Source of the DNA: a virus
Taxonomy: Duplodnaviria; Heunggongvirae; Uroviricota; Caudoviricetes
Reading direction: 5' to 3' (one strand)
Length of the DNA: 9,544 nt
IMG/VR virus record: IMGVR_UViG_2684622619_000007
Of this stretch, positions 902 to 6,180 are shown piece after piece. How positions within the stretch are numbered: position 1 is the stretch's first letter; every line of letters starts with the position of its first letter. The position numbers and the translations under genes were made by a program. The notes under the pieces were generated by a model that saw only the letters and a list, made by a program, of their open reading frames with translations, did not search any database and was not told where the DNA came from.

Positions 902-1108
902 ATGAATAAAGAACAATCTGCTGATGATCCCTCCGTGGATCTGATTCGTGTAAAAAATATGCTTAATAGCACCATTTCTATGAGTTACCCTGATGTTGTA
1001 ATTGCATGTATAGAACATAAGGTGTCTCTGGAAGCATTCAGGGCAATTGAGGCAGCGTTGGTGAAGCACGATAATAATATGAAGGATTATTCCCTGGTGG
1101 TTGACTGA
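902..1108 (+). CDS. Small hypothetical protein, 68 aa, divergent from the 177-aa ORF
   Basis: ATG at 902 preceded by GGAG at 891-894 (7-nt spacer). The protein has a balanced, charged composition, whereas the overlapping minus-strand alternatives (736-975, 863-1069) are Cys-rich and implausible. Confidence 0.5.
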
Positions 1109-1272
1109 TCACCATAACTGCTAATCATTCAAACTACTTAACCTGTGACAGAGCCAACACGCAGTCTGTCACTGTCAGGAAAGTGGTAAAACTGCAACTC
1201 AATTACTGCAATGCCCTCGTAATTAAGTGAATTTACAATATCGTCCTGTTCGGAGGGAAGAACGCGGGATGT

Positions 1273-1567
1273 TCATTCTTCATCACTTTTAATTGATGTA
1301 TATGCTCTCTTTTCTGACGTTAGCCTCCGACGGCAGGCTTCAATGACCCAGGCTGAGAAATTTCCGGACCCTTTTTGATCAAGAGCGATGTTAATTTGTT
1401 CAATCATTTGGTTAGGAAAGCGGATGTTGCGGGTTGTNNNNNNNNNNNNNNNNNNNNNNNNNNNNNNNNNNNNNNNNNNNNNNNNNNATGTTAATTTGTT
1501 CAATCATCTGGTTTGGAAATCGGATGTTGCGGGTTGTTGTTCTGCGGGTTCTGTTCTTTGATGACAT
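1273..1567 (-). CDS. Small ribbon-helix-helix (Arc/CopG-like) DNA-binding protein, interrupted by an assembly gap; about 64 aa if the gap and duplicated flank are removed
   Basis: Minus-strand ATG at 1565-1567 reads MSSKNRTRRTTTRNIRFPNQMIEQIN, runs into the N-run, and resumes in frame to TGA at 1273-1275 (...IALDQKGSGNFSAWVIEACRRRLTSEKRAYTSIKSDEE). The N-I-R-F-P ... G-S-G-N-F-S-A-W-V-I-E-A pattern resembles the beta-strand/helix-turn-helix-pair signature of P22 Arc (NLRWPREVLDLVRKVAEENGRSVNSEIYQRV). Confidence 0.55.
1388..1537. repeat. Imperfect 50-bp direct repeat (1388-1437 and 1488-1537; 47/50 identical) flanking a run of 50 N
   Basis: Copy 1: atgttaatttgttcaatcatTtggttAggaaaGcggatgttgcgggttgt. 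Copy 2 is identical except C, T, T at the capitalised positions. The N-run separates them exactly. Confidence 0.9.
1438..1487. other. Run of 50 N: assembly or scaffold gap
   Basis: Fifty consecutive n characters in the sequence. Confidence 0.98.
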
Positions 1568-1778: not shown

Positions 1779-1817
1779 CGCGGGTTTTCGCTATTTATGA
1801 AAATTTTCCGGGGAAAA

Positions 1818-1829
1818 TCATGTCGGTAC
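1818..1829 (+). promoter_or_regulatory. cosB repeat 1 (R3-like position): TCATGTCGGTAC, candidate small-terminase binding site
   Basis: First of three copies of a TCATGTCGG(A/T) motif between cosN and nu1. It lies 52-63 nt from the cos left end, comparable to lambda R3. Confidence 0.55.
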
Positions 1830-1875
1830 TTCTCGAACATAACTATTTGTTTTTTCTAATATCGAATCCGTAAAG

Positions 1876-1886
1876 GTCCGACATGA
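1876..1886 (-). promoter_or_regulatory. cosB repeat 2 (R2-like position, inverted): reverse complement is TCATGTCGGAC
   Basis: GTCCGACATGA on the + strand. Its inverted orientation relative to repeats 1 and 3 mirrors the lambda R3/R2/R1 arrangement. Confidence 0.55.
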
Positions 1887-1917
1887 AAACGCCTGAAAAA
1901 GTCATTTTCGGGCACTT

Positions 1918-1928
1918 TCATGTCGGAC
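1918..1928 (+). promoter_or_regulatory. cosB repeat 3 (R1-like position): TCATGTCGGAC
   Basis: Third copy of the motif, 26 nt upstream of the nu1 ATG. Confidence 0.55.
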
Positions 1929-1953
1929 CCTGTATTTGTTGTGAGACTGTTTC

Positions 1954-2499: not shown

Positions 2500-6180
<3,681 letters not shown>

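Follow-up and report, generated by a model that had tools for sequence, protein, structure and literature searches.

What is the role of the small gene that lies beside cos at the right end of lambda-like prophages? The question is raised by a 9,544-nucleotide stretch of viral DNA, IMG/VR record IMGVR_UViG_2684622619_000007 (hereafter the window), which covers, on the one strand shown, the right end, cos and the left end of a lambda-like prophage and which matches phage lambda 47936–48273 with 98.2% identity over window positions 1100–1437. An open reading frame (ORF) at 1273–1567 on the minus strand (ATG 1565–1567, stop 1273–1275) encodes a ylcI-type protein of the DUF3950 or YlcI/YnfO family, 64 residues in length once an assembly gap is collapsed. 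Its start codon is 199 nt from the cohesive-end 12-mer, on the strand opposite nu1 and A. A sequence-only reading had proposed a small ribbon-helix-helix (RHH) regulator at this position. We show that the ORF is a real gene under purifying selection and a member of the DUF3950/YlcI-YnfO family, and, by profile comparison and predicted fold, that this family is a diverged branch of the RHH proteins, homologous to verified members. The best explanation for its function, and one that we consider probable, is that of a dimeric, Arc-like RHH protein that would repress transcription, at least that of its own leftward unit.

An important first step is to establish the sequence of the gene, since in the window the ORF is interrupted by a scaffold gap of 50 N (1438–1487, no strand), read directly from the sequence. 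The flanks of this gap, 1388–1437 and 1488–1537, are the same 50 nt apart from three mismatches (1408, 1414 and 1420), all of them synonymous, and the gap is therefore a contig overlap that was left unmerged. Whichever copy is used to close the overlap, the product is the same 64-residue protein, MSSKNRTRRTTTRNIRFPNQMIEQINIALDQKGSGNFSAWVIEACRRRLTSEKRAYTSIKSDEE. The finished genome of E. coli O157:H7 contains the same gene as an uninterrupted coding sequence of 195 nt, which validates the gap correction. The earlier description of a gap-corrected 64-residue ORF beside cos and opposite to the late operon is borne out by both results, and the basic N-terminal tail that it pointed out is real (K4, R6, R8, R9 and R13). 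The left contig (200–1437) is 100% identical to one O157:H7 prophage and the right contig, the source of codons 1–26, departs from that prophage from 1508 on; the two contigs therefore probably derive from different lambdoid prophage copies of one multi-prophage genome, which would make the window a chimeric join. The observed gene carries this caveat with it, as its first 26 codons may well stem from another prophage copy.

Membership of the family is well supported by profile searches. YlcI matches Pfam PF13132 (DUF3950) with 71.4 bits against a cut-off of 25 (E = 5e-20), NCBIfam NF041551 (YlcI_YnfO_N) with 36.6 against a threshold of 30, and phrog_949 with E = 5.7e-35. The motifs I-R-F and N-F-S-x-W-V-x-x-A-C, invariant in a 75-sequence family alignment (A3), are all found in the window protein. 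The family is a narrow one (109 of 1.84 billion representatives at E <= 1e-3) that nonetheless spans many Enterobacterales genera and one Pasteurella element at 38–50% identity. Within E. coli it is common: a ylcI copy is present in 3,878 of 5,426 complete genomes (~70%), with a maximum of 11 per genome in Shiga-toxin strains. Over codons 1–49, eight lambdoid alleles differ at 12 sites, 10 of which are third positions, and of the 10 codons that vary 8 do so synonymously.

The closest known relatives are those of E. coli K-12, YlcI of DLP12 and YnfO of Qin, whose first 49 residues are near-identical to those of the window protein. Both occupy the same site as the window gene, and in the lambdoid loci ylcI was found between ybcV/ybcW (or ydfO) and a nu1 homologue (nohD or nohA in K-12), on the strand opposite to nu1. 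The C-terminal tail is allele-specific, being of the 64-residue YlcI type in the window and of the 77-residue YnfO type in the Qin-type loci L035–L040. In a survey of K-12 RNA sequencing data, ybcW-ylcI is among the convergent overlapping transcript pairs (PMC12288877), so the DLP12 ylcI is transcribed. The sequence-only reading knew of no function assigned to an ORF at this position. This is correct in so far as literature searches for YlcI, YnfO and DUF3950 gave no functional study, but the ORF itself was already catalogued as ylcI/ynfO and DUF3950. PGAP names it ylcI, including in the 100%-identical O157 copy, and newer phage records label the equivalent ORF "YlcI/YnfO family protein". In the lambda RefSeq record the corresponding ORF (complement 48109–48303 by our own count) has no annotation.

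Lambda DNA carrying the ylcI ORF is also found in assemblies of unrelated organisms, for example Algoriphagus, Streptomyces, Enterococcus and Cohnella and under 'Staphylococcus aureus YlcI/YnfO', and hundreds of frameshifted versions of the ORF occur on contigs of ~3.5 kb (loci L004–L034, L041, L042 and L044; proteins P0001–P0120 and P0121–P0226). This stray DNA looks like contamination with sequencing control DNA, and makes the family look more diverse than it is. In the initial homolog search, as in the search of representatives, frameshifted lambda control DNA made up most of the matches and was removed.

Structure prediction and profile-profile comparison can both be used to place DUF3950 among known folds. 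Structures were predicted for the monomer, and in part of the analyses the exact 54-residue window fragment was used as the query in place of the merged 64-residue sequence. The predicted protomer consists of a short N-terminal strand, helix A, a tight turn and helix B, a topology that it shares with a verified RHH control. The fold that the sequence-only reading expected to find in a dimer is thus predicted, as a strand-helix-turn-helix topology, for the monomer. Its best structural matches are ParD2 of Vibrio cholerae (7b22), a CopG/Arc/MetJ-family antidote (5ceg) and the C-terminal domain of HicB. A further link is provided by a sister group (alignment A4). In some E. coli islands the slot of DUF3950 is filled instead by a 63-residue protein that passes the Pfam HicB model and touches NikA-like and TacA1, all of which are RHH families. 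The DUF3950 profile A3 aligns with this 63-residue protein and with the 43-sequence A4 profile at a probability of ~75% and E of ~2.5e-5; the A3–A4 alignment gave 74% and E = 2.8e-5 over 44 columns, from the strand through helix B. The A4 profile in turn finds the Arc repressor among PDB sequences, with E = 0.007 across 48 residues, as well as MazE7 (0.077). The RHH link of DUF3950 is therefore transitive, through A4, rather than direct. The names that NCBI gives to sister-group members vary between YlcI/YnfO, HicB antitoxin, RHH CopG and repressor. In hhalign comparisons, Arc, Mnt and CopG align to the family in one register, with NLRWP of Arc on NIRFP; their probabilities are low (P = 0.011, a weak value, for Arc directly), and they serve as corroboration only. 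Lambda Cro gave no alignment to the DUF3950 family. The strand is absent from the Pfam DUF3950 model, which begins only at helix A; this may be the reason that the relationship is not obvious.

Several direct searches weigh against an RHH assignment. The window YlcI matched no RHH family in Pfam at E <= 10. Among the 75 family members searched against Pfam, RHH_1 was matched by one (E = 0.24) and HicB_lk_antitox by five (best E = 0.016). A PDB sequence search returned only a CopG protein at E = 0.38, which was lost with a larger profile, phmmer and hmmsearch against PDB sequences gave nothing significant, and Foldseek searches of PDB and BFVD were empty. The RHH-like pattern noticed in the sequence alone has thus failed as a direct Pfam match and stood in its protomer topology and its A3–A4 profile link; where a profile search of the window protein had been suggested as a check, support came instead from profile-profile comparison and the predicted fold.

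Among characterized RHH proteins, close parallels are Arc and Mnt from the immI region of phage P22. These resemble YlcI in their small size, N-terminal tail and x-hydrophobic-R-aromatic-P strand, as well as in helix A, the G-x-S/N turn and helix B. The parallel may extend to the genomic setting for the satellite members of the family, which have antA and icd as neighbours and operator-like palindromes that overlap divergent promoters, in an immI-like arrangement. In the window, unlike P22, there is no ant gene or other nearby antirepressor gene and no verified promoter, and the candidate operators differ from those of Arc and Mnt. The RHH antitoxins (ParD2, 5ceg and HicB) provide the best structural matches together with weak HicB-like profile matches, but the window has no adjoining toxin gene, its neighbours being the convergent ybcW and a DUF1398 gene.

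Relatives of YlcI outside Escherichia bear on a possible function. Most of these members lie not in lambdoid prophages but in islands of the order integrase-AlpA-AntA-...-primase, which are satellites resembling phage-inducible chromosomal islands (PICIs) or P4. Their layout consists of antA, DUF3950 on the opposite strand and a divergent icd-like–hypothetical–primase operon. In satellite loci L046–L077, L081 and L084, three 12-bp palindromes of the form GTG-N6-CAC make up a fixed array at about -99, -76 and -30 of the DUF3950 start, within ~130 nt upstream; they were counted 43 times in 23 loci, where 0.74 would be expected. The -76 site adjoins a conserved ACGTCAA, whose opposite strand is the -35 element of a good icd-directed promoter (TTGACG-17-TATAGT in L060), and the TATGGT/TATAGT box of the gene itself is overlapped by the -30 site. 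Within a locus the palindromes agree in their central bases, which differ from one locus to another and vary together with the protein. For instance, a divergent YlcI-like protein is paired with GTGGA-N-TCCAC at the same positions, and where a HicB-type RHH protein occupies the slot (L082), the palindrome ACGTACGTAC replaces GTG-N6-CAC. These 63-residue sister proteins share slot, orientation, size and basic tail with the satellite DUF3950 copies; they differ in being only ~25% identical, in passing the Pfam HicB model that DUF3950 fails, and in their upstream palindrome. The same layout is seen in the Pasteurella satellite Pmp7, where the DUF3950 gene lacks annotation.

The satellite pattern suggests, from its sequence features, a repressor gene lying beside its cognate operators in an immI-like neighbourhood (antA, icd). 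Two points call for caution here: other island genes also vary between these satellite loci, and P4-type immunity RNAs are known from this zone. Rfam searches found no C4- or CI-type RNA (C4, isrK) beside the satellite copies. In position, the satellite members parallel the immunity regions of P1 (c4-icd-ant) and P4 (CI RNA in the Bro-family gene eta): they are flanked precisely by an AntA/Bro-type gene on one side and an icd-like gene on the other, in the zone where these systems have their RNA-based immunity. Unlike in P1 and P4, a protein gene with palindromic sites fills this place, and none of this context exists in the window.

The satellite DUF3950 gene could also be read as the antisense shadow of a long minus-strand ORF (C0). 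This candidate was rejected because DNA conservation peaks in the DUF3950 gene, because PGAP annotates only a short Icd-like gene there, and because all family and PHROG signal in C0 sits in its C-terminal, Icd-like part; dN/dS values (0.20 vs 0.23) could not separate the two frames, whose wobble positions coincide. The long ORF is the short Icd-like gene reading open upstream. It does so for 220–500 codons, through the antisense of DUF3950 and past it (L060 3598–4572, L076 3577–5082 and L084 4435–5109, all minus), and in Pmp7 the long ORF is annotated as a 'transcriptional repressor'. Between the icd-like start and the operator array there is also a conserved GC-rich hairpin with a T-rich tail (e.g., GCCCGGTTAGTGCTGGTAACACTGCCGGGCTTCGCT), at ~3800–3840 in L060 with equivalents in L052, L058, L072, L081 and L082, the loop of which holds GTG-N7-CAC. 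A small RNA and a leader element are both conceivable; an Rfam search gave no match.

Upstream of the window gene, several possible control elements can be read from the sequence. A Shine-Dalgarno-like GGGG (1575–1578, minus) lies 7 nt 5' of the ATG. A possible -10 box, GATAAT (1601–1606, minus), is found at -39 to -34 from the ATG with no recognisable -35; the satellite copies have their conserved TATGGT/TATAGT box at a similar position. A consensus scan of the ylcI strand found no full sigma-70 promoter. Further upstream, an inverted repeat, ATCAATTAATACG / CGTCATAATTGAT (1637–1669, no strand), has 13-nt arms that are 85% complementary, at -70 to -82 and -90 to -102 from the ATG. A pattern scan identified the palindrome ATAAT-TG-ATTAT (1661–1672, no strand; -94 to -105 from the ATG), which is present in all lambdoid loci. 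A repeat search and the pattern scan identified a perfect 17-bp palindrome, ATGATAATTATTATCAT (1715–1731, no strand), with the core ATAAT-T-ATTAT at 1718–1728. The lambdoid copies have no GTG-N6-CAC array.

Both palindromes are candidate operators and nothing firmer. The ATAAT/ATTAT pattern has two matches in the window against 0.01 expected, for a pattern that was picked post hoc; that it was chosen after it had been sighted, in a region that is AT-rich and constrained by packaging signals, speaks against giving it much weight. Of the two sites at which the sequence-only reading envisaged binding, 1717–1729 proved to be part of the perfect 17-bp palindrome and so survives as a candidate operator, while 1142–1179 lies downstream of the gene and does not fold unusually. 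The 17-bp palindrome overlaps a promoter-like sequence, GTGACA-16-TATCAT (1704–1731, plus; 10/12 matches), which lies immediately 5' of cosQ and is aimed at cos and nu1. We know of no lambda promoter at this place.

How might such a protein work? By analogy with RHH proteins generally, we infer that YlcI would dimerise through its N-terminal strand, T-R-N-I-R-F-P, and that the resulting two-stranded ribbon would bind DNA by entering the major groove of short palindromic operators, with the basic tail (residues 1–13) giving added contacts to the backbone. In the lambdoid copies, the best candidates for these operators would be the ATAAT-N1/2-ATTAT palindromes at 1661–1672 and 1718–1728, between the gene and cosQ. 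The likely job of the protein would be transcriptional repression, including that of its own leftward transcript. This transcript is antisense to the late operon, and we therefore propose that it would be made mainly in the lysogen, like that of bor. A bolder and rather speculative extension is that in Gram-negative PICI-like satellites the role of the missing repressor might be filled by DUF3950/YlcI and the HicB-like sisters. On this view each would be an Arc/Mnt-like RHH protein that binds the three allele-specific palindromes, shutting off the divergent icd-primase operon together with its own gene, and protein and sites would form swappable repressor-operator immunity cassettes, of which the lambdoid copy beside cos would be one captured by helper-type phages. 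Such a captured copy could cross-talk with satellites, or could control a hitherto unrecognised promoter firing into cos and nu1 (1704–1731).

Lambda is among the best-studied genomes, yet a conserved gene ~200 bp from cos is absent from its reference annotation. The ylcI/ynfO gene and the DUF3950 family were already known; new here, on the strength of sequence comparison, are the proposed assignment to the RHH superfamily and the putative operator architecture of the satellites. The RHH placement makes DUF3950 a testable DNA-binding regulator, and the satellite data give concrete candidate operators and a target operon. To our knowledge, the mechanism of repression in Gram-negative PICI-like satellites is poorly understood. 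If YlcI is a repressor, a lysogen-expressed regulator would be added to the lambdoid right end, and PICI-like satellites would gain a candidate immunity switch.

Other explanations of the gene must be weighed against repression. Given that the best structural match is the antitoxin ParD2 and that HicB-like matches recur, if weakly, YlcI might be an antitoxin-like partner of the DUF1398 protein (YbcV/YdfO), with the RHH part autoregulating the pair and the C-terminal tail neutralising DUF1398. In lambdoid prophages a DUF1398 gene is conserved next to the family member on the same strand, 55 nt past the ynfO stop in Qin-type loci, a fused DUF3950-DUF1398 ORF (P0140) exists in databases, and the C-terminal tails differ among alleles around a fixed core. 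Yet a 55-nt gap with a separate Shine-Dalgarno sequence is not the usual overlapping toxin-antitoxin arrangement, in the window the two genes are parted by the convergent ybcW and ~650 nt, and the satellite copies stand alone with no DUF1398 neighbour. PADLOC recognises neither YlcI nor the DUF1398 protein, and no report of DUF1398 toxicity was found. The earlier remark that no partner toxin gene is evident agrees with the convergent ybcW next door, the distance to DUF1398 and the lack of PADLOC hits, and we consider this pairing improbable.

The position of the gene raises another possibility, that YlcI is a packaging accessory factor acting near cosQ/cosN to modulate terminase or packaging termination. 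The gene is always ~200 nt from cosN and divergent from nu1 in lambdoid phages, and the candidate palindromes lie 6–75 nt from cosQ. P0189, a protein of 129 aa, combines a DUF3950 core with positions 1–51 of Pfam Terminase_2, the N-terminal DNA-binding part of a small terminase subunit, both above threshold, but it is a single case of doubtful completeness, for which a genuine fusion, a frameshift and a truncated gene call are all conceivable. The satellite homologues lie between the Bro/AntA zone and replication genes, not by packaging genes, and their palindromes overlap promoters. In addition, a gene antisense to late transcription is ill placed for expression during packaging. Lambda packaging has been reconstituted from terminase, IHF and gpFI, and in cosmids a small cos fragment is sufficient. 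A packaging role is more doubtful still than a pairing with DUF1398. Least credible of all, and in our judgement very hard to sustain, is the idea that ylcI is a conserved but non-functional or non-coding relic, that cis-acting DNA beside cos is conserved in its place, or that the window copy is an assembly chimera with no intact gene. The unannotated lambda RefSeq record and the lack of a consensus promoter fit this idea, as do the gap that splits the window copy, its contigs from different prophages and surroundings conserved for packaging. Against it are the predominance of third-position and synonymous changes among lambdoid alleles, dN/dS of ~0.2 among satellite copies, and protein motifs that stay unchanged at 40% identity in two bacterial orders, in loci with no cos nearby; the finished O157 genome has an intact gene, and the K-12 ylcI is transcribed. 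Repression by an Arc-like RHH dimer is accordingly the explanation that we favour.

The neighbourhood of ylcI in the window follows the lambdoid pattern, and the O157 PGAP gene order is bor-ybcV-ybcW-ylcI-nohD. Convergent with ylcI is a ybcW-like gene of 68 aa (902–1108, plus), assigned from its ORF and the O157 annotation; its product matched no Pfam family. Beyond it is the ybcV-like DUF1398 gene (206–616, minus; PF07166, E = 3e-46; PGAP ybcV), for which the PGAP start corresponds to window position 616 and the mechanical ORF reaches 739. In Qin-type prophages (L035–L040, ~4195–4660) the DUF1398 gene is on the same strand as the 77-aa ynfO that precedes it and has its own Shine-Dalgarno sequence; compared with these loci, the window has the small ybcW inserted between the DUF3950 and DUF1398 genes in the opposite orientation. 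In P0140 (177 aa), a single database entry, DUF3950 and DUF1398 are read as one fused protein. An imperfect hairpin between ybcW and ylcI (1142–1179, no strand; -19 kcal/mol, z = -0.30) folds no better than shuffled sequence. Located downstream of ylcI, it is more plausibly of the terminator type, possibly bidirectional.

On the other side of ylcI lies cos. The heptamer GGGTCCT (1737–1743, plus), which we take to be cosQ from the lambda sequence at bp 48473–48479, was read from the window sequence and is at a consistent distance from the lambda right end. The cohesive-end 12-mer GGGCGGCGACCT (1767–1778, plus), presumably cosN as judged from the left-end sequence of lambda, was likewise read from the window, and in DE3 records a cos site is annotated where the match falls. 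The terminase small-subunit gene nu1 (1954–2499, plus; Phage_Nu1, E = 4e-91) is divergent from ylcI across cos and is followed by the large terminase gene. Between cosN and nu1, window positions 1805–1930 are unlike the cosB of lambda, and megablast alignments to lambda-type phages skip them. This segment holds three CATGTCGGAC-like motifs, two of which form a 25-nt inverted repeat (1875–1899/1905–1929), with an extra arm at 1818–1831; they are probably the Nu1-binding R sites of this type of cosB.
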